NCBI GenBank assembly: GCA_963802945.1
Contig: CAWDKY010000028.1
Span: 64,001 to 128,000 of the forward strand
DNA length: 64,000 nt
Source of the DNA: an uncultured delta proteobacterium
GTDB lineage: Bacteria; Desulfobacterota; RBG-13-43-22
Direction of reading: 5' to 3'
This document shows, one piece after another, positions 7,911 through 52,200 of this stretch; position 1 is the stretch's first letter; each line of letters opens with the position of its first letter. The position numbers were made by a program, and so were the translations under genes. Below the pieces are notes generated by a model that did not search any database, had not been told where the DNA came from, and saw only the letters and a program-made list of their open reading frames with translations.

Positions 7911-8987
7911 ATGAGTTCGATTGACCCGATTTATCAGAAACTGGCCGCCAAGATGGGGAAGCCGGATCTAAAAAATTTGTCTCTTCTCTTGGCCAAATTG
8001 GCTGACCTTAAAGAAGCCAGGATACTAAATGAGCTTTCGGCCAGCAGTGAAACCATAGCCCAAAAATTAAAACTGGATATAAAGACTGTAGAAAAACATC
8101 TAAAGGCCTTATTTGAGAAAGGGCTCGTTTTCCAGGGTAAAACCGGATGGCACCTGACCCGGACCTGGGGAGCGTTACACGACAGCGCCGGATCGGCCGA
8201 TGTCGTTAAATATAAGGATGTCTTTGACGAAAAATTTTTTCGTCTGCTTCAGGCTACCAGTGAGGAAGACCGGGAGCAAAGGATCAATGACGTGGTTACA
8301 GGCAAGGCCCCTTTGAGAAGAAATATGCGGGTCATTCCCAGATGGAAATCGATCAAAAATATCCCGGGACTATTGCCTTATGAAGATATCCGGCAAATAT
8401 TCAAGGCCTCGGACCCGATCGTTCTACTCCCCTGCGCCTGTAAGCGGGCGGAACCGGATAGAGAGTGCAAAGAGACCGTCCCGGAGGTAACCTGTGTAAC
8501 TTGCGGTCGTGCCGGCCAGTATAATCTCAACCGGGGGGCCGGGAAAAAATTGTCTTATGATGAAGCCTTGGCCTTATTTGATACCTTTGACCAACTTCAG
8601 CTCGTCCATCTGACCGGAAACACCAATCGCCTGCCCTCGTTGGTTTGTAATTGCCATTACGACTGCTGTGGGCAGTTCCAGGTCAACAAAAAGGCCCAGA
8701 AAGTGCTTCATCAGGACGTTATCGTTAAAAGCCGGTTTATGGCTACGATAGATCCTGAGAAGTGCAAAGGCTGCCGGCTTTGCCAAGAAAAGGGGTGTCC
8801 GGCTGGTGCCGATACTATTAAGTATTATCCTGAACTGGGCGAGGAAAGGGCCGCTATTGATCCTGAAATATGTATTGGCTGCGGTTTGTGTGTAATCAAT
8901 TGTCCCTCCGAAGCCCGTATGATGAAAATGGTGCGGCCGCCGGACCATATTCCGGAGCCGGACGCTAAGGTCGGAGAAGCGGATTAA
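7911..8987 (+). CDS. 4Fe-4S dicluster protein, tandem paralog of 6430..7584
   Basis: Shares IPRWK-IK-IPG, CAC, CNCHYDCC and YPE-G-ERA motifs and the two ferredoxin motifs. Confidence 0.8.
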   Translation: MSSIDPIYQKLAAKMGKPDLKNLSLLLAKLADLKEARILNELSASSETIAQKLKLDIKTVEKHLKALFEKGLVFQGKTGWHLTRTWGALHDSAGSADVVKYKDVFDEKFFRLLQATSEEDREQRINDVVTGKAPLRRNMRVIPRWKSIKNIPGLLPYEDIRQIFKASDPIVLLPCACKRAEPDRECKETVPEVTCVTCGRAGQYNLNRGAGKKLSYDEALALFDTFDQLQLVHLTGNTNRLPSLVCNCHYDCCGQFQVNKKAQKVLHQDVIVKSRFMATIDPEKCKGCRLCQEKGCPAGADTIKYYPELGEERAAIDPEICIGCGLCVINCPSEARMMKMVRPPDHIPEPDAKVGEAD

Positions 8988-9044
8988 AAGGCATTTGGGT
9001 TTCATTTTTAAATTCGATTAGAAAATAGGTTTGGAGAGAATGCA

Positions 9045-9965
9045 ATGGGCATTTTTCACTGCCCCGTGGGGGCAGCCTTTTATGATGATGAGGATTGTAT
9101 TGACTGCGGTATGTGTACGGCCGATACCGAAGAGCAGATGGTCGAAGCCTCTAAAAAAATCAGGGTCTATTTAAGGGCTAATGCCCCTAAGCCTGGCCCG
9201 ATCAAGAAGGTGGCTGTTTGTGGTAAAGGGGGTGTCGGCAAGAGTTCTCTGACCGCCTTATTGGCTAGGACATTGCAATCGGATGGTTACACCTTGATTG
9301 TTTTAGACACCGACGAGTCCAATCCCGGCTTGTTCCGTATGTTCGGTTTTGAGAAAGAGCCGAAACCCTTGATGACCATGCTCAGTCGATTCGCATCCGG
9401 CAAACCGGGACCTGGTACGGAATGGCTCATGAGCGATACCATCAACCTTGAGGATATACCAGCGGAATTCATCCTAAATAACGATAATCTTAAATTTCTT
9501 ATGATCGGAAAGATTGAAGACCCCTTTCAGGGTTGCGCCTGTTCGATGGCCGATATCGCCAGAGATCTCATGAGGAAACTGATCTTGAAAGCGAAGGAGA
9601 TAGTGCTGGTCGACATGGAGGCCGGTGTGGAAAGCTTCGGCCGCGGCGTGGAAAGAAATGTGGATACCGTGCTCATCATCGTGGAACCTTCCTTTGAATC
9701 CATGGCCCTGGCAGAGAAAATCGGTTACATGTGTGAGGGGATGGGGATATTCAGGGTAAGGGCTGTATTGAATAAAGTCCCTTCAGAAAAAATCAGGCAA
9801 AGGATGATCGAAGAATTGGACCGGAAAAACCTCAAAGTCATCGGTACGGTTTCATATGACCCGGAACTCAGTGAGGCCGGTTTTGAAGGCAGACCGCCGG
9901 GCCGATCAAAGGCCGCGCCGGATGTAGATGCCATTGTTAAGAATTTATTTAACGAAGCAGTTTAG
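9045..9965 (+). CDS. CooC/AcsF-like P-loop ATPase with a Cys-rich N-terminal extension
   Basis: GKGGVGKS, GCAC and DMEAGVESFGRG are CooC signatures; N-terminus CPVG..CIDCGMC. Confidence 0.85.
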   Translation: MGIFHCPVGAAFYDDEDCIDCGMCTADTEEQMVEASKKIRVYLRANAPKPGPIKKVAVCGKGGVGKSSLTALLARTLQSDGYTLIVLDTDESNPGLFRMFGFEKEPKPLMTMLSRFASGKPGPGTEWLMSDTINLEDIPAEFILNNDNLKFLMIGKIEDPFQGCACSMADIARDLMRKLILKAKEIVLVDMEAGVESFGRGVERNVDTVLIIVEPSFESMALAEKIGYMCEGMGIFRVRAVLNKVPSEKIRQRMIEELDRKNLKVIGTVSYDPELSEAGFEGRPPGRSKAAPDVDAIVKNLFNEAV

Positions 9966-10279: not shown

Positions 10280-11695
10280 TTGAAGGTTGACTTTAAAAAA
10301 TTAGATCGGGCCTTTAATCCCCGTTGTCTGGTGGTCATCGGGGACAGCAATCGCAATGAGTTTCAATGGCTGAGGGCCCAAAGTACTTTTCAGGGAAAAC
10401 TGTACTCCGTCACGGTCAATCCAGAGTCAGGTGAGGCCATCAAGGCCTTGGGAATAGACAATTATCCCAGTATCCTTGATGTCCCGGAAGCGGTTGATCT
10501 GGCTATCATCACCGTGCCCCGTGCGGCGGTTCCCAAGGTATTGGAAGAATGCATCCGCAAGGACGTTGCCGCAGCTCATATGTTTACCGCTGGCTTCACT
10601 GAAACGGATACCGAAGAAGGGATTAAAGCCGAAACCTGGCTTAAACAGCGGGGAGAAGAGGCTAATTTTCATCTGGTCGGTCCCAACTGCATGGGACTGT
10701 TCAATCCCAAGATCGGGCTCAGACAATTCCCGGCACAATACACAGGGGATAGCGGGCCGCTGGGCATTATCTCGCAAAGCGGCGGTCATGCCGTCAACAT
10801 GAGCTTAAGTGCCCATATGCAGGGAGTCTATGTCAATAAGTCGGTTAGCTTCGGTAACGGCACTTTGCTCGATTCCACCGACTACCTTGAGTACTTTGCC
10901 CAGGACCCTGAGATAAAAGTGATCGCAATGTATCTGGAAGGCGTCAAGAATGGTGATCGATTTTTCAAAGTGTTACGGGAGACCTCTCGTCGAAAGCCGG
11001 TAGCGATCTGGAAGGGCGGCAGAACGGAAGAAGGAGAACGGGCGATCGCTTCACACACCGGCTCCCTGGCGGTATCCCAGACCGTATGGGAAGCGGTGGT
11101 CAGGCAAGGCGGCGGGATCAATGTGTTGGAAATGGACGATTTGATTGATACCGCCAATGCTTTGATGCATCTGCCGCCGGTTAAGGGTCTAAGAGTAGGA
11201 GTCACCGGCGGCTCCGGAGGACAGTCGGTCAATATCGCTGACACCTTTGCCGAGGTTGGGATGCGATTACCTAAACTGACTGAGGAGTCCTATGAACAGT
11301 TACGGAAGTTTTACAATATTGTCGGGGGGGGTTATCTTAATCCGGTGGATACAGGCAACCAGAACCGATTTCAAATGAATCGGATCGTTGATATTCTGGC
11401 CCGGGATCCTAATATTGATAACCTGGTTCTGCTTTCTTTGGCCCGGGTCCTGGACATGGACGGCAGACTGGACAATCTCGTCGAAACGATGGGTAACCTC
11501 AAGAAGCAGACAACCAAGCCTATCATATCGATTGTCACCTACTGCTCGTTGGAGGAAATTGCAACGGTTGCGGAGGCCGTGGATAAATTTCAGAAAGTAG
11601 GAATTCCAACCTTCAGCACCATTGACCGCGGTGCCCGAGCTTTAAAAAATGCTTATGAGTATTATCGAATGCGTGATTTGATTAGTTCGGAGTGA
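10280..11695 (+). CDS. Acyl-CoA synthetase (NDP-forming), alpha/CoA-binding subunit
   Basis: GPNCMG, SQSGG, SHTGSLA (phospho-His) and NPVD motifs; no ATP-grasp domain. Confidence 0.88.
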   Translation: MKVDFKKLDRAFNPRCLVVIGDSNRNEFQWLRAQSTFQGKLYSVTVNPESGEAIKALGIDNYPSILDVPEAVDLAIITVPRAAVPKVLEECIRKDVAAAHMFTAGFTETDTEEGIKAETWLKQRGEEANFHLVGPNCMGLFNPKIGLRQFPAQYTGDSGPLGIISQSGGHAVNMSLSAHMQGVYVNKSVSFGNGTLLDSTDYLEYFAQDPEIKVIAMYLEGVKNGDRFFKVLRETSRRKPVAIWKGGRTEEGERAIASHTGSLAVSQTVWEAVVRQGGGINVLEMDDLIDTANALMHLPPVKGLRVGVTGGSGGQSVNIADTFAEVGMRLPKLTEESYEQLRKFYNIVGGGYLNPVDTGNQNRFQMNRIVDILARDPNIDNLVLLSLARVLDMDGRLDNLVETMGNLKKQTTKPIISIVTYCSLEEIATVAEAVDKFQKVGIPTFSTIDRGARALKNAYEYYRMRDLISSE

Positions 11696-11797
11696 TGAGT
11701 TCGGAGTTCGGAGATAATAGTTCAGAGTTATTAGTTCGGGGTTCGGAGCAATAATGAACCAATAAACTTTCAACTTCGAACTCTGAACTCCGAACTG
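11684..11797. repeat. Heptamer (GTTCGGA/GTTCAGA) tandem repeat arranged as an inverted pair
   Basis: gttcggag units followed by complementary ctccgaac/ctctgaac units. Confidence 0.7.
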
Positions 11798-11824
11798 TAT
11801 TTTCAATTGGGAAAGGAACGTGAA

Positions 11825-12769
11825 ATGGAACAAGTTGCAGGTATCAACAAGGTTACTATAATCGGCGCCGGCCTCATGGGATTCGGGATCGGGGTTGATT
11901 TCGCCCGTGCCGGCTATGAAACTTGGCTCTACAATACACGAGAGGAGACCAGTCTTCAGTCCATGGACCGATCCCGGAAGGCCTTGAACCTGTTTGTGGC
12001 GGCGGAGATGATGACTACGACCGAAGTTGAAAAGGCCTACGCTTGTCTGCATCCGACCATCAGTCTGGAGAAGGCCGCAGAAGGCGCTGATTATGTCTCT
12101 GAATCGGTCATGGAGTCCTTATCGCTTAAACGGAAAATTTTTGCCGATCTGGATCGTCTCTGCCCGCCAAAGGCCATACTGGCAACTAACTCTTCCAATT
12201 TTACGACTACATCGATCGTTACCGACAATGACATTAAGCATCCGGAGCGGTGCTGTGTAGCCCATTATTTTCAACCGCCACACCTTCTGCCGCTGGTCGA
12301 AGTGGTCGGAGGCGAAAAGACCGCCAAAGAAACCATAGAACTAACCTGTCAAATTCTGTCCAAGATGCACAAGAAGCCGGTGGTCATCCCGGTTGAGGTG
12401 CCCGCACATGCCGGCAACCGCATCCAGGGGGCCATCGGCCGTGAGATTCGGTATCTTATCGACAATAAAATCTGCACACCGGAGATGATCGACGATATCA
12501 TCATGTACAGTTTCGGCCGTCGTATGGTCAACACCGGCTGGTTTATCCGCAATGATCTGATCGGTCTGGATTTCAGCTACAATACCGCCAAAGCCGCCGG
12601 TAAGGAAGCCTGGTGGCCGTTTAAGGAGCGGGTCGAGCGCGGGGAGCTGGGCATGAAGTCCGGCAAGGGTTTCTATGAATGGCCCGATTTCGGTGAGGCC
12701 TTGAAGCACAGACAGGACATGGATCTGCTTCGCTTCCTCAAAAGGGACATCGAAGAGGGCAAACTCTAA
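11825..12769 (+). CDS. 3-hydroxyacyl-CoA dehydrogenase family protein
   Basis: GAGLMGFGI, ATNSS, HYFQPPH.LPLVE and LGMKSGKGFY; ATG at 11825 follows an RBS-like ggaaagga. Confidence 0.9.
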   Translation: MEQVAGINKVTIIGAGLMGFGIGVDFARAGYETWLYNTREETSLQSMDRSRKALNLFVAAEMMTTTEVEKAYACLHPTISLEKAAEGADYVSESVMESLSLKRKIFADLDRLCPPKAILATNSSNFTTTSIVTDNDIKHPERCCVAHYFQPPHLLPLVEVVGGEKTAKETIELTCQILSKMHKKPVVIPVEVPAHAGNRIQGAIGREIRYLIDNKICTPEMIDDIIMYSFGRRMVNTGWFIRNDLIGLDFSYNTAKAAGKEAWWPFKERVERGELGMKSGKGFYEWPDFGEALKHRQDMDLLRFLKRDIEEGKL

Positions 12770-12883
12770 AGCAAAGATAGTTGAAATTCCTTAATTCAGA
12801 TTCAGATGTCAGAATTCAAAAGTGAGATCTATAGAAAAAAACTTTCTATTCTGACTGAAGAATAGGCATTTTATTTTTTCACC

Positions 12884-13135
12884 TCATCTTTTTCCCACAA
12901 GAACTTCCAGAAATTTTCTAATCGTAGTTTCGCAATATTCAGAAGCTTATAAATGGCGCTGACGGGCGTAGTTTAAAAACTTCCCGACCCAATAAGCATA
13001 AAAAGGGGCATTCTTTTCCGGCACAAGGTTTTTAGTCAACAGAAACTTCTGAAATTCGGAAAGGACTCCGGTTGTGGGGGTATTTGACAATTTATCCCAT
13101 ATTATAAGAACTTCGTTTTTATTCCATATTATCAA
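12884..13135 (-). pseudogene. intI: N-terminal remnant of an integron integrase with an internal stop
   Basis: LSEFQKFLLTKNLVPEKNAPFYAYWVGKFL resembles the N-terminal SAM-like domain of integron integrases; TAA at 12947; divergent from an attI-like site and attC cassettes. Confidence 0.7.
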
Positions 13136-13229
13136 AAATTACGAAAATCTGCAAATTATCGTTATTGTTTTAAATAATGATTTTCTTTTTACAAATATTA
13201 GTATGTGGTATAATTAATGCCAAGAGATA

Positions 13230-34888: not shown

Positions 34889-35752
34889 CTAGGCTGAATC
34901 GATTCTTTTACCTTCGCTCTTTACTGCTGTATTTTTGTGTTTGTTTTTAAACCACTCAATCAGACTTCTGGCAATACTGATCCTGCCAGGGATTTTGGGT
35001 AATTGGTCGAAGGTAAACCAGTTGGCCTCCAGGATCTCCGTACCGTCTACTCGGATCTCTCCACCGGCATAACGGGCGGTGAAACCGATCATCAGGGAAT
35101 CCGGAAAAGGCCAGGGCTGGCTCCCGAAATATCGGATGTCCTGCACCTCAATGCCGGTTTCTTCTCTTACCTCTCGCCCCACTGTTTCTTCCAAAGTTTC
35201 TCCCGGTTCAGCGAAGCCGGCCAGGACACTGTAAAACCCATCTTGAAAACGAGGGGAACTGGCCAGTAAACATTGATCTCCCCGTTCCACCAAAACGATC
35301 ACTGCCGGCGATATACGGGGAAAGCTCTGGTGTCCGCAGCCGGGACATTTCTTGGCCCTCTCACCGTCTTGAATTTTCAGTTCCATCCCGCATCGTTGGC
35401 AGAATCGGGTCTGTTGAGACCATTCAAGAAGATGAATGGCGCGAAAGGACAGCAGGAGTATATCCTGTTTCAGCCGTCTATAGAGCTGGAACAGATCCTG
35501 AAAAGCCATATCAAGAGGGGCTGCATCAGAATCAGGAACGATAGCGGCAAAACAGGGTTTTCCATCCAGGGTTCCCAGGTAGGTATCTTCTATAGGTTGG
35601 AACCCCAATGCCTCCGGACCGGAGAGAAGAGGGATTTTCGCTTCTTGGCCATCGGATGTTACGAGCAGTCTGCGTTTGGAAAAAATAAACCACCAGGCCG
35701 ATTCCGTTTGTTCATTCGGCCGATCGGTTGAGGCAATAAATCGTTTGGTCAT
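34889..35752 (-). CDS. nudC: NAD(H) diphosphatase
   Basis: Zn ribbon CQRCG..CPGC, Nudix box GFAEPGETLEETVGREVREETG and SQPWPFP. Confidence 0.95.
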   Translation of the reverse strand: MTKRFIASTDRPNEQTESAWWFIFSKRRLLVTSDGQEAKIPLLSGPEALGFQPIEDTYLGTLDGKPCFAAIVPDSDAAPLDMAFQDLFQLYRRLKQDILLLSFRAIHLLEWSQQTRFCQRCGMELKIQDGERAKKCPGCGHQSFPRISPAVIVLVERGDQCLLASSPRFQDGFYSVLAGFAEPGETLEETVGREVREETGIEVQDIRYFGSQPWPFPDSLMIGFTARYAGGEIRVDGTEILEANWFTFDQLPKIPGRISIARSLIEWFKNKHKNTAVKSEGKRIDSA

Positions 35753-39061: not shown

Positions 39062-39310
39062 CTAACAAATTATAGTAGAGCCGAATTTACCAAGGTCATT
39101 CTTCGGTTTCACTCCCAACTCCAACTTAATGAGAGCCGCCGCTTTCGCCTCCCCCAATATGGTTAAGCCGAATCTCTTTTTTGATTCGAAGAGCCATTCC
39201 ATCCACCGCCGGCGATCTCTGGAAAATTTAAACAGATATTCCCTCTTATGGCATCGATGGGTGATATGCCATATCTGATTAGGAATAAAATATCGATTGG
39301 CACGCGGCAT
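39062..39310 (-). pseudogene. N-terminal fragment of a REP-associated tyrosine (HUH/Y1) transposase
   Basis: MPRANRYFIPNQIWHITHRCHKREYLF; truncated before the HUH motif. Confidence 0.75.
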
Positions 39311-39428
39311 CTCTGGTCTTCTTAACCCACTCTTTTTGGGGGGTAAAAAGATCGGTTTAAGGCCTTTTTAACCCATTATTTTTAGTATCTTTCAGTGGAA
39401 TTTCAATCTATTGTCTCGGTCCGACCCC
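39238..39428. repeat. 191-bp direct repeat, copy 1 (transposase 5' end plus GGGGTCGGACC end)
   Basis: Nearly identical to 40656..40846. Confidence 0.9.
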
Positions 39429-40281
39429 CCTTTGACTGCATGCCATGGTTGCGCGGGTCAAGGGGGTGTTCGGGGCTAAAATCAATACGTGTACCCAAAT
39501 GTAGACCAAGCATATCCAAAGCCTCCTTAATCTCGAGAACCTTACTCCTACCGAAAGCCTTCAGCATTAGCATTTCCTGCTCCGTCCTTTGAACCAACTG
39601 TCCAAGGTAGCGTATGTCCAGTTTCTTGAGCATGGTGGACGTGTCAATTCTCAGACCAAGAATGTCAATCGGGGCAAAAAACTTTGACGCACAACCAACA
39701 TAAGCTGTACGCATCTCGGAATTGAGCACCCGAACAGTGTTTAGAACCTCCTCCAGTAGCTCCCTGTCTGTTCTGAGGACTGCGCGATCCAACTGGTGCT
39801 GTTCCTTTAGTACGTCGTTTATATCCTTTTCAAGATCAGGCCACCATTTTTCGTAAACAGCGTCCAACACAGGGGCATCCAGAGCCAGTTCACCGAGTGC
39901 CTGGTTTATCGTCTTAAGGAGTTTTTTCACTTCATCTTTTCCAAAAACCGCGGCTTGAAATTGCAGTAGAGGTCCTTTCAGATCAGCACTATTAATACCA
40001 AACAACAACGGTATGACACGGGATTTATCGACACTTTTCGACAGCGCTCCTGCTTCAAACATTATCCAGGGTTCGTCTGTGTTTTCCCGCGTCAAACAGA
40101 TGAGTCCAACCTTAGATTGCTCGAGTTCTTTCGATATCTCAGTGTACCACCGTGCCCCTTTGTTAATATCGTCTGGTGAAAAATATGGTTTGACAATTTG
40201 AATAACGGCCGGTATCCACTCTCTAAATATCTCAGCAAGTTTCTTGCTGGTGGAGCCAGACCAGCTTATAAATACTCTCAT
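39403..40281 (-). CDS. TIR domain protein fused to an RNA polymerase alpha-CTD-like domain
   Basis: MRVFISWS...KGARW..EI..PWIMFEAGAL (TIR with catalytic Glu); C-terminal PIDILGL..IRYLGQLVQRTEQE..FGR..EIKEAL..LGLHLG (alpha-CTD). Confidence 0.85.
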   Translation of the reverse strand: MRVFISWSGSTSKKLAEIFREWIPAVIQIVKPYFSPDDINKGARWYTEISKELEQSKVGLICLTRENTDEPWIMFEAGALSKSVDKSRVIPLLFGINSADLKGPLLQFQAAVFGKDEVKKLLKTINQALGELALDAPVLDAVYEKWWPDLEKDINDVLKEQHQLDRAVLRTDRELLEEVLNTVRVLNSEMRTAYVGCASKFFAPIDILGLRIDTSTMLKKLDIRYLGQLVQRTEQEMLMLKAFGRSKVLEIKEALDMLGLHLGTRIDFSPEHPLDPRNHGMQSKGGRTETID

Positions 40282-40655
40282 AAATACCCCCTGTGGTTGT
40301 TTGAAAACTGCCAACCCGATTCTCGATAACTACTGCCCAAGTTATTCTAAAGATCTGCATATCTCCTTGTTTTCCATGATATACAGAAAGATAATCTTAA
40401 GTTTAACGCCCAATTTTGTTTTAATGGGCATAAATTAACCTTTTGTAAGAGTATTAACTTCAAATATTTGATCCTTACCTCATTAAAACAAAAAACCCCA
40501 CCTCTTATTTAAAAAATGGGGCTTATAGTTCTTCCCTCGACACTCCCTTAGTAAAAGGTTGCCAACAAGAAAGCTTCTTCAATTTGTTTAAGAATTCTTA
40601 CCTCCTAATTATCAATAAGTCAATTAATTTCAATAAGCTTTTTATTTATTAAGAA

Positions 40656-40846
40656 ATTCCCTCTTATGGCATCGATGGGCGATATGCCATACTTGGTTGG
40701 GAATAAAATATCGATTGGCACGCGGCATCTCTGGTCTTCTTAACCCACTCTTTTTGGGGGGTAAAAAGATCGGTTTAAGGCCTTTTTAACCCATTATTTT
40801 TAGTATCTTTCAGTGGAATTTCAATCTATTGTCTCGGTCCGACCCC
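40656..40846. repeat. 191-bp direct repeat, copy 2
   Basis: Nearly identical to 39238..39428. Confidence 0.9.
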
Positions 40847-40849
40847 GCT

Positions 40850-40990
40850 TTGCAATTCTCCTTATCGTAAGTGTAATGATAATTCCCGGACAAAGGCGTA
40901 GTCATGGTCCGGCGCAGAGTCACGCCAGTGTAATCAAAACCATAACTGATGGTTCGTGGATTGGTCAATACGATCATGCTGATATTGTCA
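40850..40990 (-). pseudogene. Truncated start of a further orphan RHS cassette
   Basis: Encodes ..LTNPRTISYGFDYTGVTLRRTMTTPLSGNYHYTYDKE, matching 43190..43330 and 47820..47960. Confidence 0.75.
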
Positions 40991-41500
40991 TTATTTTTCT
41001 TGCCCCATTTTTAGAAGATTATCTAATTTTTCTTTAAAAAGCTTAGCTTCTTGTTCATTGAATGAAAGTTCTCTCCCTTCAATGGAAAGAACAAAATTAG
41101 TAAAATCCAATAGCACGGCCATGTATTTTTTTTTAGGAATAAAAAATAAAATTTTATCTGTATATTTTATATAAATATCATACGTTGGAAAATATTTATT
41201 CGAATATCTCCTATTTTCATTATATACATTTAAAATTAACTGTACGAGTTCTGAAGAAGTAATAGTTTTATTTTTTAAAATTACTTCTTTTCGTATTTGT
41301 CCTGGAGTAACATAATTTTCACTTAACTTATTTTTTGTAGGATCGATTTCAAGGATAATTTCAACAAACCCATTATTTAAATAAGATAATTGTCTTTCAA
41401 GAGTTTTATCGTCAACGTAAACATAATAAAATGAATCACATGAAAAACATAATATTATTAAAAGGTAGAAGAAAAATATTAAAGAAATCTTTTTCCCCAT
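40991..41500 (-). CDS. Putative immunity lipoprotein for the upstream PLA2-like toxin
   Basis: Directly downstream of the toxin tip; very AT-rich; lipobox-like CFSC; paralog of 43340..43843. Confidence 0.7.
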   Translation of the reverse strand: MGKKISLIFFFYLLIILCFSCDSFYYVYVDDKTLERQLSYLNNGFVEIILEIDPTKNKLSENYVTPGQIRKEVILKNKTITSSELVQLILNVYNENRRYSNKYFPTYDIYIKYTDKILFFIPKKKYMAVLLDFTNFVLSIEGRELSFNEQEAKLFKEKLDNLLKMGQEK

Positions 41501-41511
41501 TTTTCCCTCCC

Positions 41512-43330
41512 TTATCTGCCCATAAATTCAAAAATGGTTTGTGCTCCAATACGATAACTAATAGTATACCTTGTCGGCATCCACCAAGGTGGAGGGGTTT
41601 TCCACATAAAAGGAAGTATTGGTAATTCAGATAAACATTTTGATAATTGCCTATCACAATCTTTTCTGGATTTCTTCTTACAACTATCAATATCATACCA
41701 ATCAGATATTTTGGAATTTGAATAACACTGATCATGCTGCATAAAACATTTATCCATACTATCTATGGGTTTTCCTGGGCCACTCCTTCCCGGTCCTCCC
41801 CATCTTCCGTATGGGGGAATTATCCAATTTGGAAATAGCCCTTGAGGATCTATCCAATTAACCGGATCGCTTAGGTTATACCCAAATAAATCCGTATCTA
41901 TGCCCTGGAAGAGAATAGGATCCTTGGCTGTCCAACGTCCAACTTCGGGGCTGTAATCCCGATATCCAAATCGTACCAATCCCGTGTCTCGGTCATGGAG
42001 ACCACCGGCAAAGCCAATGGGAACGCTCATTGTTGGATTCGTGTCTGAAATTATATTGCCGAAGGAATCATAGTCAATCTTTTTAACGATAGTGCCGGAG
42101 GCATCAGTGACGGTTTTAAGAGAGCCGACCTGGTCATAGGCAAGGTAATAAGTGCTACCATTGTAGGTCATAGAGACCGGCAGACGGCCATCGGCGTAGT
42201 TAAAGCTCATTATCAGGTTGTCATTACCATCATAGACGGCCAATAGGGTAATAGCATCCTTCCAGAGATATTTTTCAATTATGGTTCCATTGATACGTTT
42301 TGCAATCCTGCGTCCCATTGGGTCATGGTCGTAGGTAATGACAGCGGAGGAGGGCAGGGTGGCAGAGAGGAGTTCTCCCCGCGAAGAATAAGTAGTAGTT
42401 ATTGTTCCGGCCGAGGTTGTCTTCTGAGTCAGAAAACCATCGACATCGAATTGATATGTATCGGTGCCTGCAGTGATGACTTGATCTTCGACCGAGATGG
42501 TATAGGAACGGTTAACGCCACGGAGGGTGTTTATTTCCGTGAGGCGATTGCCATTTGGATCATAGGTGTAAGACTCCACGACCACACTATTTTTTTTGAC
42601 TTTATTCAGCCTGCCATTGGTATCGTATGCATAGTCATAGGTGTCGGTTGCTCCATCGATGGTTTCCACTTTTTGGGTGATCCTTCCGGCCAAGTCACGG
42701 GTGAGGGAGTAATTGTATTTGTTAGCCCCTCCTATTGTGTAAGCAGAGCCATCCAGTTCCCCATAGCCACTAAAGGTCCGGGAATTTGTCAAGGTTCCAT
42801 CCGAAACCGTTTCCGGCAATCCGTTCCGGGCATTGCGGGTAATAGTGAAAGACCCTGCATCGGTTAACAACCCGTCGTTATCATAAGTGAAAGGTTGGGA
42901 TGCCCCGGCATAGCTCAAAGAGGAAAGCCTGAAATCGTTGTTGAAACTATACCCGATGGTCTGGTTAAGCAATCCTGTTCGGGTATCGGTGGTTAGGAGG
43001 GAACCATCATATCCGTAAGTGACTTTTTCTGTACCTCTTGTCGCTTCCCCCAGGAGAGACGAGCAGTTATAGGTATAGCTGGTTACGCCTTCCGGGGTAG
43101 TGGTAGAACTCAGGAGACCGGTTGAGTAGGTATTCGCAATTTGCCTTCCTGATGGGAAGAGAATGGATTTCAGGTTCCGTTCCTTGTCATAGGTGTATTG
43201 ATAATTCCCGACATGGGTGTGGCCATGGACCTGCGCAGGTTCACGCCAGTGTAATCAAAACCATAACTGATGGTTCGGGGATTGGTCAGCACGGTTACAT
43301 TGCCGTTGGCATCATAGTCATAACTGATTA
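41512..43330 (-). CDS. Orphan RHS cassette A: partial YD core plus PLA2-like C-terminal toxin
   Basis: YD repeats, DPVNWIDPQGL cleavage motif, then YGRWGGPG..PIDSMDKCFMQHDQCY; 5' part nearly identical to the main gene and lacks a real start. Confidence 0.85.
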
Positions 43331-43339
43331 GCTTGTATT

Positions 43340-43843
43340 TTATGGGGATGGCATATTTAAAAGAAAATCTAATGTTGTCTGAAGTAACTTAGCTTCTTGT
43401 TCATTAAAAACAAATTTTCTCCCTTCAATAAAAATAATAGAATTTTTAAAATCAAGGATAACACCTAAAAATTTTTTCGAGGGAAAGAAAAATAAAAACC
43501 TATCAGGATATTTAATAAATATCTTATAGGTTGGGTACCACCCCTCTCCAGAGTACCTTTGGTTTTTCTTGGTTATCTCTAAGATTAAATGAATCATTTC
43601 TAATGATTTTGTCGTATTTTTTATTAAAACCTTTTCAATAATTATTTTTCCAGGAGCAACATATTTCTTGTTATTATCATCTTTTGTTGGATCAATTTGT
43701 AAAACAACTGAGACAAAGCCATTACTAATATTTGATAGTTGCTTTTGAAATGTATAATTATCGACATAAACATAATCAAATGACTCACAACATATAACCA
43801 TCAAAAGAAAAATAAAAATCTTGGGGTATATTTTCTTTTTCAT
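43340..43843 (-). CDS. Putative immunity lipoprotein
   Basis: MKKKIYPKIFIFLLMVICC signal/lipobox-like sequence; follows the toxin tip; paralog of 40991..41500. Confidence 0.7.
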   Translation of the reverse strand: MKKKIYPKIFIFLLMVICCESFDYVYVDNYTFQKQLSNISNGFVSVVLQIDPTKDDNNKKYVAPGKIIIEKVLIKNTTKSLEMIHLILEITKKNQRYSGEGWYPTYKIFIKYPDRFLFFFPSKKFLGVILDFKNSIIFIEGRKFVFNEQEAKLLQTTLDFLLNMPSP

Positions 43844-43857
43844 ATTTCGTTTTTCCT

Positions 43858-45755
43858 TTATCTGCTCATCAACCAAAATAAACCTTGAGATCCAATTCGG
43901 TACAACGTAGCGTATTCAATGGGCATCCACCAAGGAGGCCGATTTTTCCACAATAACGGATTAAAAGATAGTTTTGAAATACAATTTTTTACTTCTTTAT
44001 CGCATCCTTTCCTGTCCTTTAGTTGAGAATTATTAACCTTCCAATCATTTATACCAAATTTCTCATAATTTTTATCATGGGCTCTAAAGCATTCATCCAA
44101 ACTGTCTATTGGATCTTCCGGTCCACTTCTTCCTGGCCCCCCCCATCTCCCGTATGGAGGAACAAACCAATTGGGGAATTCTATGGTTACAAGGGAGGAA
44201 GATGCGCTTAAACCCCCTCTGGAAAGAGCTCCTTGGACATATTGTTGAATAAGCACGGCCTGTTCAGTAAGTCCAAATGGATCCATCCAATTCACTGGAT
44301 CATTTTGTAAATAGCCATATAGATTCATATCCCCACCAGCAAACAGGATAGGATCCTTGGCTGTCCAACGTCCAACTTCGGGGCTGTAATCCCGATATCC
44401 AAATCGTACCAATCCCGTGTCTCGGTCATGGAGACCACCGGCAAAGCCAAAGGGGATAGTAAATGACGGGTTTGTATCACCGATGATGTTGCCGAATGAA
44501 TCATAGTCAATCTTTTTTGTCATATTTCCAACAGTGTCCGTAACTGCTTTTAAAGATCCTACTTGATCATAAGCGAGGTAATAGGTGGCACCGGCCTTTG
44601 TCATAGAAATCGGCATCCGGCCATCGGCATAATTAAATCTCATCAGGAGATTATCATTACCGTCATAGACAGCCATTAACCTGGTCCGACCCTGCCAGAG
44701 GTATTTTTCAGTTATTACACCATTCACTTTTTTAGCAATCCTTCGGGCCAATGGATCATGGAGGTACTCGATTGTTCGCCCATCTGAAAGTAATGATGAT
44801 AATAACTCACCACGGGATGAATAATGGTAGTTCGTCGTACTTGCACCCTGATTCTTTGAAGTGAGAAACCCATCCAGATTGTATTGATATGAGACATTCC
44901 CAGCAGTCAGCAGGTGATCTTCGATAGAATAGACCAGATTCCGTCCGGCTATCCCCCTTAGGGTATTTACCTCATAGGTTCTTGTCCCATTTAAGCTATA
45001 CTGGTATTGTTCAACAATAGAGCCATTTTTAGAAGCAGTCAAAAGACGGTCCATGGGGTCGTAAGTGTAAGTGTAATTAGTAGAAGTCCCGTCAACTGTT
45101 TCTGTACGGGTTGAAATCCTACCTGTATCAGTGCGAGTCAGCGACCATGAAAGAGGAGTCTGGCTTCCGATCGTATAAACCTCTCCATCTTCCTCTCCAT
45201 AGCCATTAAATGTACGGTTCAGATTCAATGCCCCATCATTGACCGATGTTGGCAGGCCAGTAGCTGCATTCCGACCGATGGTAAAGGGCCCCGCACCGGT
45301 CAATAACCCGTCATTGTCGTAACTAAAATTCACCGGTTGACCGGCATAGGTAAATGAAGATAAGTTGAAATCGTTGTTGTACGTATACTGCAATGCCTGG
45401 TTCAGGGAGCCGTTCAAAGTCTCGGAGGTGATCAATGCGCCGTCATAGGTGTAAGTGATCCCTTCTGTGCCCTTGGTTATGTTACCAATCTTCGAATCAC
45501 AGAGATGATTATAAACGATATTTCCTTCCGGGTCTCTGTTCGGATGAGTTGACCCTGATTATAGATATTATTGATCAGTATGCCGGAAGGAAAAGTTAAC
45601 TTGACTAGGTTCCTCTCTTTATCATACAGGTATCCATAACTGCCGCTCAGTGGAGTCTGATAAGAACTGTTTAGGTTGACTTTGTTATACCAGAAAACGT
45701 GATTAATTAATGATGGATTGGTCAACACGGTCATGTTGCCATTGGCATATTTCTG
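43858..45755 (-). CDS. Orphan RHS cassette B: partial YD core with decayed 5' part plus PLA2-like toxin
   Basis: ORFs 45477..45767 and 43858..45435; DPVNWMDPFGL, then YGRWGGPG..PIDSLDECFRAHDKNY. Confidence 0.85.
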
Positions 45756-45861
45756 TATGAATTTCAAATAGATATGATGTCAATTAAATTATTAAAGAGC
45801 GTCCCCCTTCTCAGGTTCATGCTGACCCTATTTTAAGAAAATAGACCCCAAACTACTAACC

Positions 45862-46212
45862 CTATGAGATGAAGAATACTATTTTTATAATCCCTGCGGC
45901 GGCTGCAGAACAAATTAAAAATACCAAACTTATTTTGATAATTTTAATCTCAGTTGGTGAAAGTGCCCTAGGAGAATAAAAAAAATGATGCAATAACCAA
46001 AGAATCAAGCCAATCAAAAAACCTGCCAGCCCCGATTTAAGAATAAAAAATGGCAACCAAAAAATACCAATTATCCAAGTTGACGATGGGCGCCCAATGA
46101 ATAATTGGGAAATCATAATGCTTAAATAGTAACTTGCCCCCATTGATAAACCAATTATTCCACCCACAAAGGAAAAGACGTTAGGATATTTTAATTTCAT
46201 TATTTTCTCCAT
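45862..46212 (-). CDS. Putative membrane immunity protein of the main toxin
   Basis: About three hydrophobic segments; start overlaps the toxin stop codon (TAATG). Confidence 0.7.
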   Translation of the reverse strand: MEKIMKLKYPNVFSFVGGIIGLSMGASYYLSIMISQLFIGRPSSTWIIGIFWLPFFILKSGLAGFLIGLILWLLHHFFYSPRALSPTEIKIIKISLVFLICSAAAAGIIKIVFFIS

Positions 46213-49200
46213 TAACGCAAACTACCACAACAAGGGAAATAAGAAATCGAGCCACCAATTTTGACTGCATAGCTATAAAATAAGGCCCTATAATTACATG
46301 CTTCTCTATCCTTAGAAGCGACTCTCTTACATTTTTCTTTTATGCATTCACTAAATGTATTATCGCAATTCGCTTTTCCCTTACAACCCTCATAACAATT
46401 ATCATGAGCATCGCAGCATTGGCTAAAACCCCATGGATCAGGAATACTCATACCATATGGCCCGCATCCTTTAAGCCCTTCAAGGTCGACAAAATTAACA
46501 GGGTCATTGTATACATATCCATAAAGATTTGTCTCTTTAGTAGCGAAATCAATAGGGTCTTTAGCAGTCCAGCGACCGATATTGGGATCATAATCACGTG
46601 CTCCGAAGCGGACTAAGTTGGTGCCACGGTCATGAAGGCCACCGGCAAAGCCGAATGGAATTGTAAGTGAAAGATTGGAGTCGGTGACGATGGTGCCAAA
46701 GGTGTCGTAACCAATTTTTTTGACGATGGTGCCAGAAGTGTCGATGACTGTTTTTAGGGAATCTATCTGGTCATAGGCAAGGTAATAAGTACTACCATTA
46801 TAGGTCATAGAGACCGGCATTCGACCATCGGCATAATTGAAGCGCAGTATCAAGTTGTCGCTGGCATCATAGACGGCCAGAAGGGTAGTTGCGCTGGCCC
46901 AGAGATATTTTTCTACAATGGTTCCATTAACCCTTTTGGCTATTCTTCTACCCATCGGGTCGTGGTCGTAAGTGATAACAGCGGAAGAGGGCAGGGTGGC
47001 AGAGAGGAGTTCTCCCCGCGAGGAATAAGTGGTAGTCATTGTTCCTGCGGGGGTTGTCTTCTGGGTCAAAAAGCCATCGGTATCGAATTGATAAGTATCG
47101 GTTCCAGCGGTGATGACTTGATCTTCAACCGAGACGGTATAGGAACGATTGACGCCCCGAAGGGTATTTATCTCGGTCATGCGGTTGCCATTGGCATCGT
47201 AGGTGTAAGACTCCACAACCATGCTATTCTTTTTGACTTCATTCAGCCTGCCGTTGGTATCGTAACCATAATTATAAGTATCCGTCACCCCATCCAACGT
47301 TTCGATTTTTTGAGTGATCCTTCCGGCCAGGTCACGGGTGAGGGTGTAACTGTATTTGTCTGCTCCTCCTACTGTGTAAGCAGAACCATCCAATTCCCCA
47401 TAACCGTTGAATGTCCAGGTATTGGTCATGTTTCCATCTGAAACCGATACAGGTAATCCGTTTTGGGCATTACGGGTTATGGTGTATGAACCGGAGCCGG
47501 TCAACAGCCCATCACTGTCATAGGTGAAGGATTGGGATGCCCCGGCATAGCTTAAAGAGGTAGGCCTGAAATCGTTGTTATAACCATACCCGATGGTCTG
47601 GTTAATCAGGCCTGTTCGGGTATCGGTGGTTAGGAGGGAACCATCATATCCGTAAATGACTTTTTCTGTAACTCTTGTCGCTTCCCCCAGGAGAGACGAG
47701 CAGTTATAGGTATAGCTGGTTACGCCTTCCGGGGTAGTGGTAGAACTCAGGAGACCGGTTGAGTAGGTATTCGCAATTTGCCTTCCTGATGGGAAGAGAA
47801 TGGATTTCAGGTTCCGTTCCTTGTCATAAGTGTATTGATAATTCCCGGACATAGGTGTGGCCATGGACCTGCGCAGGTTCACACCAGTGTAATCGAATCC
47901 ATAACTTATTGACTTGGGGTTCATTAAAATAGTCATGTTGCCATTTGCGTCATAGTCATAACTGATCATAGTGTAGTCCGGCAGGGTCTGGGCCTTAATT
48001 CTTCCTATTATATCATAGGTGTAAGAATAAGTCTTCCCATCGGGGGCAGTCAGGCTCTGAATATTGCCTTGATTGTCATAAGTAATTGTGGAAGTCCTGT
48101 TGCCGATTACGGCGGTAGTCAACCTTCCTTTGGTGTCGTATCCATAACCTAAGGGGAGAAGACCTGTCAACGTCATATTCTGGGTGAGCAGGTTCAAAGG
48201 ATTATAGGTGCGGGTTATCATCCTCCCCAAGGGCGATGTGCTGGTCAGAGTCCCAGTGAGGGTATTGTTGAGAATTGTCCAATTGTAGCCGTTTATGCCG
48301 AGAGTTTCTGTTATGAGGTCAGGGATTGAATCCCCATTATAGTCCTGATAGATTCTGGTGTCGGTGGCGATTAGCATGAGGCCGGCAGGGGTGCGTTGGG
48401 TGAATTCTTTGAGGTATTTGTACTTGTAAGCCGAGTCAAGGTCATATTTCATGGTCTGGTTCATGCCGCAGGAAGGTTGATTGGTTTCAGTCAGGCCGTC
48501 CGACGGAACGGGTGAAGGTGCTGGCAGAGCCGGAGGGGCTGGTGGTGATGGAGGTATAGGCCCCGGTGGAATCGGTATGGTCTTGGTAGGTGGTGGTGTT
48601 GCCTTCAGCGGTTTGCATGGTTACGGTGACAGTGCCGGAATTATCCACACTCCGGGGATAACTCCAGGATCCTCCTTCCGGATCCAAGATGTTGGTAGAT
48701 CCTACCGTTGCCATCGAATTGATGGACAAAATGGTTTCCCTTGGGATCGTATTCGTCGGTCATCAAACCATCCGAAGTATAGGTAAAGGAATAGGCGGAA
48801 TTATCCGGATAGGTGACAGTGCTGAGATGGTTATTGCCATCTACGGTCAATCGGGTCACAATTCCGTCCGGTGAAGTGATCGACAGGGGCACTCCACTTC
48901 CATCCCTCTGGATAGTGGTCTGGTTGCCGAAACGGTCCGTGATGGAAAGCAGTTTATCTGGCCGAATCATATCCAAAGGTGAGCAGGGTTTTGCCCGTCG
49001 CCAGGTCGATGGTGGATTTGTGGAGACCTGTGCTGTCCATGATATAGCCCTGGCCGTTTACATCGGAGAAAATTATATCTCCAGAAATAGTATAAGGTTT
49101 AATTCCTTCGGGTAGGGGGACTTTTCTAATCCGTGATGCGTTTGAGTCTGCTATATAGATGTTCCCTAAGCTATCTAACGCAACCCCTTGAGGAAAATAA

Positions 49201-52200
49201 AGGCTAGCCTCGGTCGCAGGGACTCCTTCATCAGAAGGATCATAATAAAGTCCTCCGTCCCCGGTTCCGGCGATAGTCATAATGATCCCGCTGGTATCCA
49301 CTTTTCTTATTTTTCGGTTACCCGTATCCGCTATATAAAGATTCCCTACATTGTCTAATGTAATGCCATTTGGGATAATGCTTTCTTGTGTAGCAGGATT
49401 CCCGTCACCACTTCCAGACCAACCCCCATTCCCCGCAATAGTTGTAATGATCCCACTTGCGTCCACCTTCCTTATCTGAAGAAATTCAACTATAAATACG
49501 TTTCCTTTATTATCTACGGCTACAACTTGCGGATAATTTAGGTTCGCCTGTATAGCTAGGCCTCCATCTCCACTAGATCCTCCCTGCCCATTTCCAGCAA
49601 TAGTACTAATAGTCCCACTTGTGTCCACTTTCCTTACCCGCCAATTATCCGGAATAAAAACATTTCCGATGGTATCCACAGCTACACTGCTTGGCCAACC
49701 CAGGCCCGCCTGTGCAGCCGGACCCCCATCTCCACTGAAACTATTATTTCCATTTCCCGCAACAGTGGTAATAATTCCATTTGTATCAATCTTCCTTACC
49801 CGATAATTCCAAGTATCGGCTATGTAGATATTCCCAGGGTCGTCTACTGCTACCCCATATGGCGGACCAATGCTTGCCTGTGTGGCCGGACCCCCATCTC
49901 CACTGAAACTATTATTTCCATTTCCTGCAACAGTGGTAATAATTCCATTTGTATCAATCTTCCTTACCCGATAATTCCAAGTATCGGCTATAAAAATATT
50001 TCCAATATTGTCTACAACGATTCCTTGTGGCTTATTAATTCCGGCCTGTGTCGCAGGTCCTCCGTCTCCGCCGTAAGGCCAGCCGGTTCCAGCAATAGTA
50101 AAAATCGGCCTGGTATTATTTTTTATAATTGTTCCGTCTCCTTTAAACAGAATACTTGGGTCGGCAGGATTCATATGATGATGAGAAGAAACCGACCAAC
50201 CTTCTGCAATAGTTTCCACTTCTCCTCGAGTTACTGTTATTGTGGTATTTTTCCAGGCTATTGCCTCTTCCCGAGCTGTGATTTCGGATACCACGTTTCC
50301 TGTTATTCCAAAGGATCGAACCAAATTTACACTTCCCCAATAGACTGCTTGGTAAACAAATCCGATCTGGATATAGGCAACAGCTGACCCATATTGTCTT
50401 CCGAGGTAATCCAAACCATCCCATATAAATTCCACCTTTTGATAAGGCTGTGGGGGAAGTGTGGTTTCAAAAGTGCGGCCGGCAATCTCCATTTTGACAA
50501 TGATATTCTTCAGGCTGGCTGGGACACTTGAACCGCTGGCCGGGATGGTAACCACTGATTTATATCCTTTTACCCGGCTACTGGCATAATGGAGGGTCAT
50601 GTCCGTACCTGGAATGGAGATATCTTCATGGAAAATTCGACTTCGGTTCTCCATATAGGAGTTAAAGCACATATTATTATCGGGAGGGGGTGGTGATGGT
50701 GGAGAATCATCAACGGGTTCACCTGGTGGATTCGGTAGGATAGCATCAATTGGAAAACCCCATGCCAAGTTGTAGTCCCAAACACTAAAGTGCGTATGCT
50801 CCACCCGCCAGTATGTGGATCCTGGTCTATATTGGTTCGGATCGGTGAGGCCAGGTGCAGGATATTGATTTATACCATCCGTATAGGCATCGACGATGCC
50901 GTCTCCGTTGGTATCGAGGAGGCGGACTACGACACCGTTATCCTGGGGCACCCAGACGGCACGATCTTGGTCATAATAGCCGACCGGTACTATTTCTCCC
51001 ACATTGAAACCGAGAAAATTGTTCACATAGACCACAATCGGTTTATCAAACCGTGCGCTTTGGGCATTATCTACAGAAAGCTCGGCACAATAGGTAAAGG
51101 CCGAGGTCGGCGGCAGTTTGGCCGGCATGGATTCCGGGGTCGTGTATTCCGTGGCCCGGACAGTGATGTTGGTCATGGGCTGTTCATTGCCCTGGGCGTC
51201 TTTCACCCAAGCCCGGTTATCCCCGGTTAGAACCATAGTCAGCGACCTAGTGCCACGGCATTGGTAGTGGTCGAGCTTTTGTGAGTCAGGATGGTTGCAG
51301 CATTGCCGTCAAAGGTAAGAGCCGTGGCCGCGATATCCGCTGGGATCATAACAATGGTCTCGGCATTGGCAATGGTGTTCCAGCCGATATTGACCTGGCG
51401 GTGAGCGGCAAGAAACCCGGTCTTCTGATAATCCACTGTGACCGTACCTCCGCCGTCCAGCGGAATGGAAAATCTGCCTGCGGCATCAGTTTGGGCCGTC
51501 CCATATTCCGGATGACTGTGGATGCCGACAATCGCACCGGACAGGGGATTTCCCGACCTGTCTTTCACCAGCCCGGTGATCAAGGAAAAACGATTGGGAT
51601 CATAACTTGGTATGGTGGCATTAGGAGGAACAAGGTCTTCGTAAGTCTTCCCGTAAGATCCGTCAGGAAGGGGAGAGACATTGGATGCCGGAGCGACGGT
51701 AAAATTGATGGACCCTGAAGTACCCCCTCCGGGTGCAGGGTTGGTGACTATTATCGGGTATGTCCCTTGTGTGGCAACGGCTGTTGCTGGGATGGAGGCT
51801 GAAAGTTGAGTGTTATTTACATAGGTGACCGTTACCGGCGTATTATTGAACTTGACCGAAGAGCTGGTGACAAAATTGCTCCCGGCCAGGCTCAAAGTAA
51901 AACCCGAACTGCCTGCTTTTATTGAACTTGGGCTTATTGCAGAAAGGAGAGGCGGTTATCGAAAGAGTCCCCCCAGTTGCCAGATGGGAAGCATCCAGAT
52001 TAATTTTAAGCTCTGTTCCGCTGACATAGGTGGTTGATTCGGTCTGGCCATTTACAAAAACACTTGTACCGGGAAAGAATCCTGTGCCGTAGATTGTGAG
52101 CGTCAATCCCGAGCCTCCGGCTTGAGTGGAAGCAGGATTAATGGCGGTTATGGCCGGAACCGGGTTTATCACGGCAAGCACCAGAGTATTGGAAGAACCG

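Follow-up and report, generated by a model that had tools for sequence, protein, structure and literature searches.

We analysed 64,000 nucleotides of DNA from an uncultured delta proteobacterium of the Desulfobacterota (positions 64,001 to 128,000 of contig CAWDKY010000028.1, GenBank assembly GCA_963802945.1; this whole stretch is referred to as the window) and found a gene on its minus strand that encodes a TIR domain, a helical linker and a diverged copy of the domain at the C-terminus of RNA polymerase's alpha subunit (alpha-CTD). The constant part of the family to which it belongs, residues 1-190, is made up of the TIR domain and the linker and is called the chassis here. The alpha-CTD appears to have been taken from the polymerase subunit RpoA more than once, and a sister branch on the same chassis ends in a motif like the tip at the C-terminus of its hosts' SSB, the protein that binds single-stranded DNA. 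We tentatively read the window protein as a single-protein abortive-infection TIR enzyme with an integrated bait that mimics a host protein, a call that we place a little short of even.

The gene is an intact open reading frame (ORF) of 292 codons that closes with a stop at 39403-39405. We assign its start to the ATG at 40281, which is preceded 5 nt ahead by AGGGGG (40292-40287, read from the sequence); an alternative in-frame TTG at 40314 would give an N-terminus 11 residues longer. Pfam places TIR_2 (PF13676) on residues 3-113 (E 4e-8, 34.2 bits against a cut-off of 28) and RNA_pol_A_CTD (PF03118) on residues 202-256 (E 7.2e-9, 35.7 bits against a cut-off of 23.8). In phmmer comparisons with PDB chains, the alignment of residues 202-270 with alpha-CTD chains from E. 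coli is ungapped (1lb2_B, E 4.7e-9). The E. coli numbers are higher by 52, with residues 176-270 paired to 228-322 in the alpha chain of 329 residues. An earlier sequence-only reading of this DNA had aligned the domain by hand to RpoA, without gaps and with about 27 identities in 66 positions; a hand count on the phmmer alignment gives 27 in 65 (positions 254-318). All of the substitutions named there are present in the window protein (R265D, N268T, N294A, K298S, S299K, D259I and E261G), and so are all of the named retentions (T285, E286, E288, G315 and R317), with G296 and E302 kept as well.

An AlphaFold2 model built from an alignment of 44 sequences (alignment A1) has a mean predicted local distance difference test score (pLDDT) of 86.4. 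It shows a beta-alpha TIR fold over residues 1-130, with block pLDDT mostly 84-97, followed by two long helices at residues 136-168 and 172-201 and by a compact helical C-terminal domain in which the alpha-CTD blocks reach 92-97; the blocks of the tail fall to 67, 56 and 50. In Foldseek comparisons, the modelled C-terminal domain superimposes on E. coli alpha-CTD crystal structures with template modelling scores (normalised to the target) of 0.8-0.93 and root-mean-square deviations of 0.9-1.9 Å, and the modelled N-terminal domain resembles the TIR domains of RPS4, L6 and L7 and the SPARTA TIR-APAZ protein (E about 3e-5 to 5e-4). Two hidden Markov model (HMM) matches over cut-off together with the fold exclude a chance match. 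The HMM scan and the structure prediction that had been suggested as checks thus both came out in favour of the original domain calls, with both domains over cut-off and the alpha-CTD fold recovered.

The TIR domain contains the glutamate of the FEAG motif that the sequence-only reading had singled out, which is residue 76. Both Glu76 and W72 are invariant in all 44 sequences of A1, and Glu76 aligns with the Glu of WCLMEL in the flax L7 and L6 TIR domains and of WCLNEL in the SNC1 TIR domain, in matches that are weak (E 0.28-1.2). The aligned Glu is the catalytic residue in plant TIRs, and we presume that Glu76 is the catalytic glutamate. The linker carries the motifs EKWWP and RxDRExLEE, and W147, R170, E178 and R184 are invariant in A1. 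Homologues stop 10-25 residues before the end of the window protein. A two-copy homodimer prediction made with A1 scored 0.38 against a mark of 0.42 and gives no evidence either way on assembly.

The window protein shares the fold of the RpoA alpha-CTD and is clearly homologous to it, and its nearest RpoA domains come from the host's own phylum (the best are from Desulfobacterota, at 60.0, 59.6 and 58.8 bits). It differs from RpoA in that the alpha N-terminal assembly domain is absent and the CTD is fast-evolving. NCBIfam rpoA models cover residues 185-276 only, with scores of at most 56 bits against cut-offs of 228-523 (the best is 56 bits against 302). Since the rpoA models match one segment and lie far under their cut-offs, the gene product is not an RpoA paralogue; a separate true rpoA is found on another contig of the same genome.

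The origin of the fused alpha-CTD was examined in an alignment of 139 rows, which held 72 fused alpha-CTDs and 67 RpoA alpha-CTDs (28 sampled from the phylum to which the window belongs, 29 from that of a gammaproteobacterial host and 10 from genomes with chassis loci). In the resulting tree, 48 fused copies share a starred clade with 10 gamma-type RpoA (support of 96 in the Shimodaira-Hasegawa-like approximate likelihood ratio test, SH-aLRT), and the other 24, including the copy in the window, fall on the Desulfobacterota side of the RpoA. We name copies "gamma-type" and "delta-type" after their place in this tree, so that tests by type are post hoc. The hypothesis that the fused copies form one clade fails in an approximately unbiased (AU) test (p 0.0071, log-likelihood difference 26.6) on a 41-row subset of 20 of the 72 fused and 21 of the 67 RpoA sequences, which was hand-picked after the first tree, with the tested group preset by architecture. 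Altogether, these trees support capture of the alpha-CTD from RpoA on at least two occasions. The gamma-type copies still have two stretches of gammaproteobacterial RpoA, its DPILLRP lead-in and its ENWPP end. The rare W279 is common to the delta-type copy P0013 and the RpoA of the window's own genome. The type of the fused copy equals the class of the host's own RpoA in 8 of the 8 genomes in which both genes were available.

For 8 of 8 queried fused copies, the best RpoA score was at least as high as the best score of a non-RpoA alpha-CTD-like protein among 150 representatives. An origin from the non-RpoA repeat proteins was dropped, as RpoA domains score at least equally. We observe that proteins of this other kind are numerous, with 2-10 tandem alpha-CTD-like domains (P0121-P0270), and that P0132, P0136 and P0125 have sigma-70 region 4 as well. 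TPR repeats and two alpha-CTD domains occur together in a recurrent family whose members are about 455 amino acids long (P0195; ORFs G007:C30 and G008:C7; loci L093, L094, L102 and L103). The representative search with the alpha-CTD only revealed no other effector fusions and mostly multi-repeat proteins (150 listed, 10 scanned with Pfam). Two records labelled as Acinetobacter phage MD-2021a (CAKLQH020000003.1 and CAKLQF020000004.1, about 240 kb) carry an annotated rpoA and could be bacterial DNA that was binned wrongly.

The fusion is not a one-off. A word-indexed protein search gave 2914 relatives at E ≤0.001 among 4768 candidates, and in the best 120 of these, which were classified by C-terminus, 73 end in an alpha-CTD, 31 in ..PF and 16 in other sequences. 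The chassis is present in at least 556 of 598 candidate stretches drawn from one-genome-per-species contigs of many phyla and was confirmed in 84 of 101 candidate IMG/VR viral stretches. It also occurs on plasmids, and in the lambdoid phage mEp390 it stands alone as a moron, with Q on one side and the lysis genes on the other; the spread of the chassis is mobile and moron-like. The alpha-CTD is carried by only 7 of the best 80 chassis genome loci. Pfam assigned no C-terminal domain in 10 chassis proteins with other C-termini, and two truncated chassis forms were seen (P0093 and P0057).

The window's genome holds one copy of the chassis. Searches of that genome for the 1TM-TIR and 2TM-TIR partners of a related system (models PDLC02977 and PDLC02978) gave no match, an absence that is weakly shown since the controls were also silent, and a comparison of the 8 alpha-CTD loci showed no shared ORF within ±5 kb. 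With no conserved neighbour and no partner detected, the alpha-CTD variant is a stand-alone gene, in agreement with the sequence-only reading, which had described it as single.

The second kind of C-terminus on the chassis is the ..PF class, in which the ends read (D/E)(D/E)IPF. DDDIPF is the C-terminal hub motif of bacterial SSB, a docking site for many host proteins (PMC5872125). Ends of the form acidic-[ILV]PF are found in 16 of the 68 parsed chassis genome loci (L010, L014, L027, L028, L031, L034, L036, L040, L045, L054, L058, L065, L067, L078, L080 and L082), with close variants in four more. SSB itself ends in [IL]PF in 20 of the 20 hosts examined (SSB loci L166-L189), and the last six residues of the chassis tail equal those of the host SSB in 6 of the 20, including the less common DEDLPF and DDEIPF. 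Where the host SSB ends in LPF, the chassis tails end in VPF, LPF and LPF in G077, G078 and G087, respectively, and in IPF in G076. Across all loci examined, 36 of 5049 ORFs of at least 100 amino acids end in acidic-[ILV]PF, and 32 of the 36 could be identified as SSB or chassis by motif; the remaining four, assigned by locus and length only, are two ORFs in Pseudomonas SSB loci and two of chassis length in L019 and L035. The loci were chosen for holding SSB or chassis genes, so these counts show the specificity of the motif and not its frequency. Judged by their sequences, two different C-terminal modules on one scaffold both imitate host hub elements. As a separate observation, the alpha-CTD member P0114 also ends in ..AIPF.

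The chassis has relatives among described defence genes. The PADLOC TIR-TM model (PDLC03016) matches residues 1-192 of the window protein with positions 1-197 of its 293 (E 1.7e-79), and it matches gp02 of Escherichia phage P2_AC1 over positions 1-286 (E 2.7e-118); upstream of gp02 lie two genes that fit the 1TM-TIR and 2TM-TIR models. Rousset et al. 2022 report that cloning of the three genes from the P2 hotspot gave E. coli protection against lambda, LF82_P8 and P2-like phages, and they propose that the TIR protein supplies the membrane proteins with a nucleotide messenger (PMC9122126). The window protein and gp02 are homologous in the TIR domain and linker, with 49% identity over residues 1-157 by tblastn. 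However, the C-terminal third of gp02 is unrelated and has no alpha-CTD, positions 198-293 of the TIR-TM model are unmatched by the window protein, and the AC1 system includes 1TM-TIR and 2TM-TIR partners whereas the window gene stands alone. Thoeris, CBASS, Pycsar and single-gene TIR systems, which act by depletion of NAD+ or by signals made from it, share with the window protein a TIR_2 domain with a conserved Glu and the proposed logic of abortive infection. Single-gene TIR systems with extra domains are reported to protect E. coli (PMC11350192). Unlike in Thoeris, CBASS and Pycsar, the surroundings of the window gene show no evident ThsA, cyclase or other partner, and the PADLOC ThsB1 model reaches E 0.032 against the window protein, which is not significant. 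The sensor here would moreover imitate a host protein, a design that we met in none of the papers searched.

Plant nucleotide-binding leucine-rich repeat receptors (NLRs) with integrated decoys, such as RRS1-WRKY, are established. Their likeness to the TIR-alpha-CTD protein would lie in an immune protein that carries a copy of a host domain targeted by effectors; the difference is that the TIR-alpha-CTD protein has no NLR or STAND module and that effector binding is putative here. An integrated decoy has a sensor homologous to a host protein that the pathogen targets, here the phage, and the domain on the chassis is nested among RpoA alpha-CTDs. In bacteria, the authors of the bNACHT11 study hypothesise mimicry of a shared host binding partner and do not identify it (PMC11702601), whereas in the present family it is readable from the sequence as the RpoA alpha-CTD or the SSB tip. 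We found no TIR-alpha-CTD fusion and no SSB-tipped TIR in the literature, in a search that left most subscription journals and supplements outside.

In the reading that we favour, residues 1-190 would serve as the effector chassis and the alpha-CTD as a copy of the host RNA polymerase domain acting as bait. The copy would be engaged, in place of the host alpha-CTD, by a phage protein that normally binds or modifies the latter, and engagement of the bait would release or assemble the TIR domains. These would use up NAD+ or produce a signal derived from it, and the phage would stop replicating in the cell. Phage proteins that act on the alpha subunit include T4 Alt and ModA, which ADP-ribosylate R265 (PMC2988021), P2 Ogr, which binds alpha, and phiKMV-like Rac, which causes removal of the CTD by cutting (PMC7552054); lambda CI works through the 261 and 287 determinants (PMC1874639). 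For this member we infer the defence function, the binding of the bait, the trigger, the oligomerisation and the NADase chemistry. The wider proposal, on which we are more guarded, is that the large cross-phylum TIR family consists of modular integrated-decoy receptors that carry swappable copies of host hubs which phages cannot do without (at least the alpha-CTD and the SSB tip), each recaptured or tuned to its host, and that act by NAD+-based abortive infection. The sequence-only reading had likewise proposed a bait for a phage transcription factor; its observation of the fusion is confirmed, and this interpretation is partly supported.

A detached copy of the alpha-CTD needs no promoter DNA binding, so that its DNA contacts would be expected to decay first. 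The 265 determinant of UP-element binding comprises residues 265, 268, 294, 296, 298, 299 and 302 (PMC10853779), of which the window copy holds two, G296 and E302; of the 261 determinant, three of four residues are changed. Positions 262, 265, 268, 269, 270, 296, 302, 312 and 315 are invariant in the 67 RpoA. Retention was counted in 71 distinct fused copies, against a comparison set of 18 further positions with a conservation of at least 90% in RpoA. Mean retention is 0.50 for the DNA determinant vs 0.72 for the comparison set (permutation p 0.037), and it drops to 0.30 in the delta-type copies (permutation p 0.006). Among single positions, T292 is kept in 6% of the fused copies, C269 in 13%, and N268 and S299 in 34% each. 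The residues of the fold core are retained at 0.87-0.99, with L260, L270, L307, L312 and L314 at 94-99%. R265 is present in 41 of the 71 copies (58%), and 11 of the 71 keep six or seven of the seven determinant residues. As R265 is common in the family, the term "DNA-blind" used in the sequence-only reading fits the window protein and describes a trend, not a rule, for the family. The same holds in part for the activator-contact 287 face, which was said to be kept: it is so in the window protein, and family-wide E286 (92%) and G315 (87%) are retained, with T285 (about 53%) and E288 (49%) often lost. The alpha-CTD averages a pairwise identity of 0.42 and the TIR domain one of 0.64, with the alpha-CTD lower in 939 of 946 pairs; in the 67 RpoA this domain hardly varies. 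This faster change fits either an arms race or relaxation.

A number of results weigh against the bait reading. No interaction face is clearly preserved (R265 58%; E261 about 57% in gamma-type and 33% in delta-type copies; T285 about 53%), fast change over all RpoA-specific surfaces also fits plain relaxation, and the loss of DNA contacts is not significant in the gamma-type copies alone (p 0.15). The alpha-CTD was found in none of the best 80 viral chassis loci, which were scored by HMM search of six-frame translations with the genome loci as positive control. The enrichment in defence islands that the sequence-only reading had suggested as a check is not seen at the seven other alpha-CTD loci, where the 29 nearest ORFs (Pfam on 29, PADLOC on five) are mostly metabolic and housekeeping genes. 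The defence role of the alpha-CTD members is inferred from chassis homology only, and the relative from AC1 works with two membrane proteins that are not found beside the window gene; for the AC1 TIR, the role proposed by the authors is signalling and not NADase activity (PMC9122126). On the side of origin, the placement of the delta-type copies by the Desulfobacterota RpoA is unstarred (SH-aLRT 85-93) and involves long branches, and the test does not reject one common clade for the gamma-type copies (p 0.30), so that two captures are supported and no more. Raw identity puts the host's own RpoA at the top in only three of the eight genomes and at the median in one, and the match in host class could reflect transfer within classes; a FastTree phylogeny of the chassis likewise puts the delta-type copies in one group.

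Several of these data also bear on other roles for the C-terminal module. The alpha-CTD or the SSB tip could be an address label that tethers the TIR domain to host machines, with the enzyme firing when a phage disturbs them; we consider this unlikely. The candidate partners would be activators, sigma region 4 and AT-rich DNA for the alpha-CTD and the SSB interactome for the tip. The host-matching data, from the class match in all 8 genomes to the SSB tips, fit such tethering just as well. The kept fold core with part of the 287 face (E286 and G315) and the 11 copies with six or seven DNA-contact residues also speak for it, and so does the known use of the SSB C-terminus by many host proteins for docking (PMC5872125). 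However, the domain changes faster than host partners would tolerate, as seen from its identity relative to the TIR domain, the same surfaces are nearly invariant in RpoA, and the window copy is altered at the sigma contacts (D259I, E261G) and at five of the seven DNA contacts.

It is improbable, in our view, that the TIR domain and linker do both the sensing and the killing and that the alpha-CTD is a relaxed captured fragment that only folds, as a cap or for solubility. The drift of all RpoA-specific surfaces would be in keeping with such a passenger, together with the many unrelated C-termini on the chassis, none with a Pfam match, the two truncated forms and the natural 3' end of the window gene, which was seemingly replaced by repeat sequence. 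A passenger sits poorly, however, with a folded alpha-CTD in 71 distinct sequences (core residues kept at 87-99%, model pLDDT 92-97) and with capture of the same host domain at least twice, and the host-matched SSB hexapeptides of the sister branch are hard to explain by it.

A sensor of nucleic acid, in which the helix-hairpin-helix of the alpha-CTD binds AT-rich or unusual phage DNA and so activates the TIR domain, is quite improbable. The alpha-CTD is a minor-groove DNA binder, R265 persists in 41 of 71 copies and at least six of the seven determinant residues in 11 of 71, and non-RpoA alpha-CTD-like repeats, some with sigma-70 region 4, are common and presumably bind DNA. Yet the DNA determinant is the worst-kept of the conserved sets, above all in the delta-type copies, C269 and T292 are nearly gone from the family, and the window copy has two of seven determinant residues with Asp at 265. 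As the SSB-tip branch is without a DNA-binding element, a common logic of DNA sensing does not extend to it.

The window gene lies in an insert next to a toxin locus, and the coordinates of its surroundings are collected in the table below. Two direct repeats of 209 nt, 95% identical, bracket a unique insert of 1209 nt (39435-40643) that contains the TIR gene, whose last ~10 codons and stop fall in the downstream repeat. The transposase fragment in this repeat is named RAYT/IS200-like after its N-terminal peptide; Pfam gives it no match. Both repeat junctions are bridged by read-length contigs from public runs, which may be the source of this metagenome-assembled genome itself, and a chimera of the assembly was dropped as an explanation on the strength of these bridged junctions. 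The DNA runs held only small shares, of 0.19 or less, and no RNA run was listed for this DNA. The repeat layout looks like a single-crossover integration of a circle with one repeat copy.

Features of the TIR-alpha-CTD gene and its surroundings in the window
Feature	Coordinates	Strand	Evidence or remark
Whole gene: TIR, helical linker, alpha-CTD-like domain, tail	39403..40281	-	ORF translation, Pfam
Shine-Dalgarno-like AGGGGG	40287..40292	-	Sequence inspection
TIR domain, residues 1-130	39892..40281	-	Pfam TIR_2, model, Foldseek
Glu76 codon, motif W72-x3-E76 (PWIMFEAG)	40054..40056	-	Invariance, alignment to plant TIRs
Helical linker, residues 131-201	39679..39891	-	Model helices 136-168 and 172-201; invariant residues; PADLOC
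Alpha-CTD-like domain, residues 202-270 = E. coli RpoA 254-322	39472..39678	-	Pfam, PDB alignments, Foldseek
C-terminal tail, residues 271-292	39406..39471	-	Low pLDDT; end inside 209-nt repeat
Downstream 209-nt direct repeat copy, with 5' part of presumed RAYT/IS200-like fragment (ORF 39062-39310)	39226..39434	.	Repeat search, alignment
Upstream 209-nt direct repeat copy	40644..40852	.	Repeat search, alignment
Terminator-like hairpin in the insert, upstream of the gene; would insulate it from the RHS array	40493..40524	-	Consensus scan, weak (2 sites vs shuffle mean 2.1)
Orphan RHS C-terminal cassette, phospholipase-A2-like	41512-42972	-	
Orphan RHS C-terminal cassette	43858-45435	-	
RHS/YD-shell protein, phospholipase-A2-like tip	46212-48464	-	
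Teneurin-like NHL protein	48954-51236	-	

Upstream of the TIR gene lies a polymorphic-toxin locus of the RHS/teneurin type (40991-51236, minus strand). Its orphan RHS cassettes are 71-79% alike at the DNA level, and the small gene that follows each of them is probably an immunity gene. The sequence-only reading had called this neighbourhood a conflict island; it is an RHS polymorphic-toxin array and not an anti-phage island. Downstream of the TIR gene are genes for a periplasmic binding protein, a trypsin-TPR protein and a NudC-like NUDIX enzyme. The last of these is a NADH pyrophosphatase of the NudC type with NUDIX, NUDIX-like and zinc-ribbon domains (34889-35752, minus strand), and its position about 4 kb from the TIR gene is probably a coincidence. 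Among the seven other alpha-CTD loci, one has a DDE transposase as a neighbour, and one, L006, is the sole defence-like neighbourhood, with a 713-aa ATPase at 11021-13159 (plus strand) that is PDC-M49A/AriA-like in PADLOC and a Phd/YefM antitoxin at 8912-9298 (minus strand). A role outside phage defence, as an orphan toxin or immunity cassette of the RHS array or as a transcription-linked regulator, is suggested by the position of the gene directly downstream of the RHS C-terminal and immunity cassettes on the same strand and is highly improbable, given that the gene has its own ribosome-binding site and start within the insert of 1209 nt between the 209-nt repeats, that no ORF is common to the 8 loci within ±5 kb and no RHS family occurs in the 29 neighbour ORFs scanned at the other seven, and that chassis relatives occupy phage defence hotspots.

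How phages are sensed is the main open question for most single-gene bacterial immune systems. A sensor that can be read from the sequence as a copy of a host protein points to candidate triggers, which for the alpha-CTD members are the phage proteins that bind or modify the alpha-CTD and for the SSB-tip branch are binders of the SSB tip, such as phage recombination or replication factors. If the bait reading is true, this would be the first bacterial immune receptor with a decoy recognisable from sequence, and it would extend the integrated-decoy principle of plant NLRs to bacteria. Swaps of the bait on a fixed TIR effector would then offer a simple system for the origin of sensor specificity, and the other C-termini on the chassis would be a catalogue of candidate host vulnerabilities that phages exploit.

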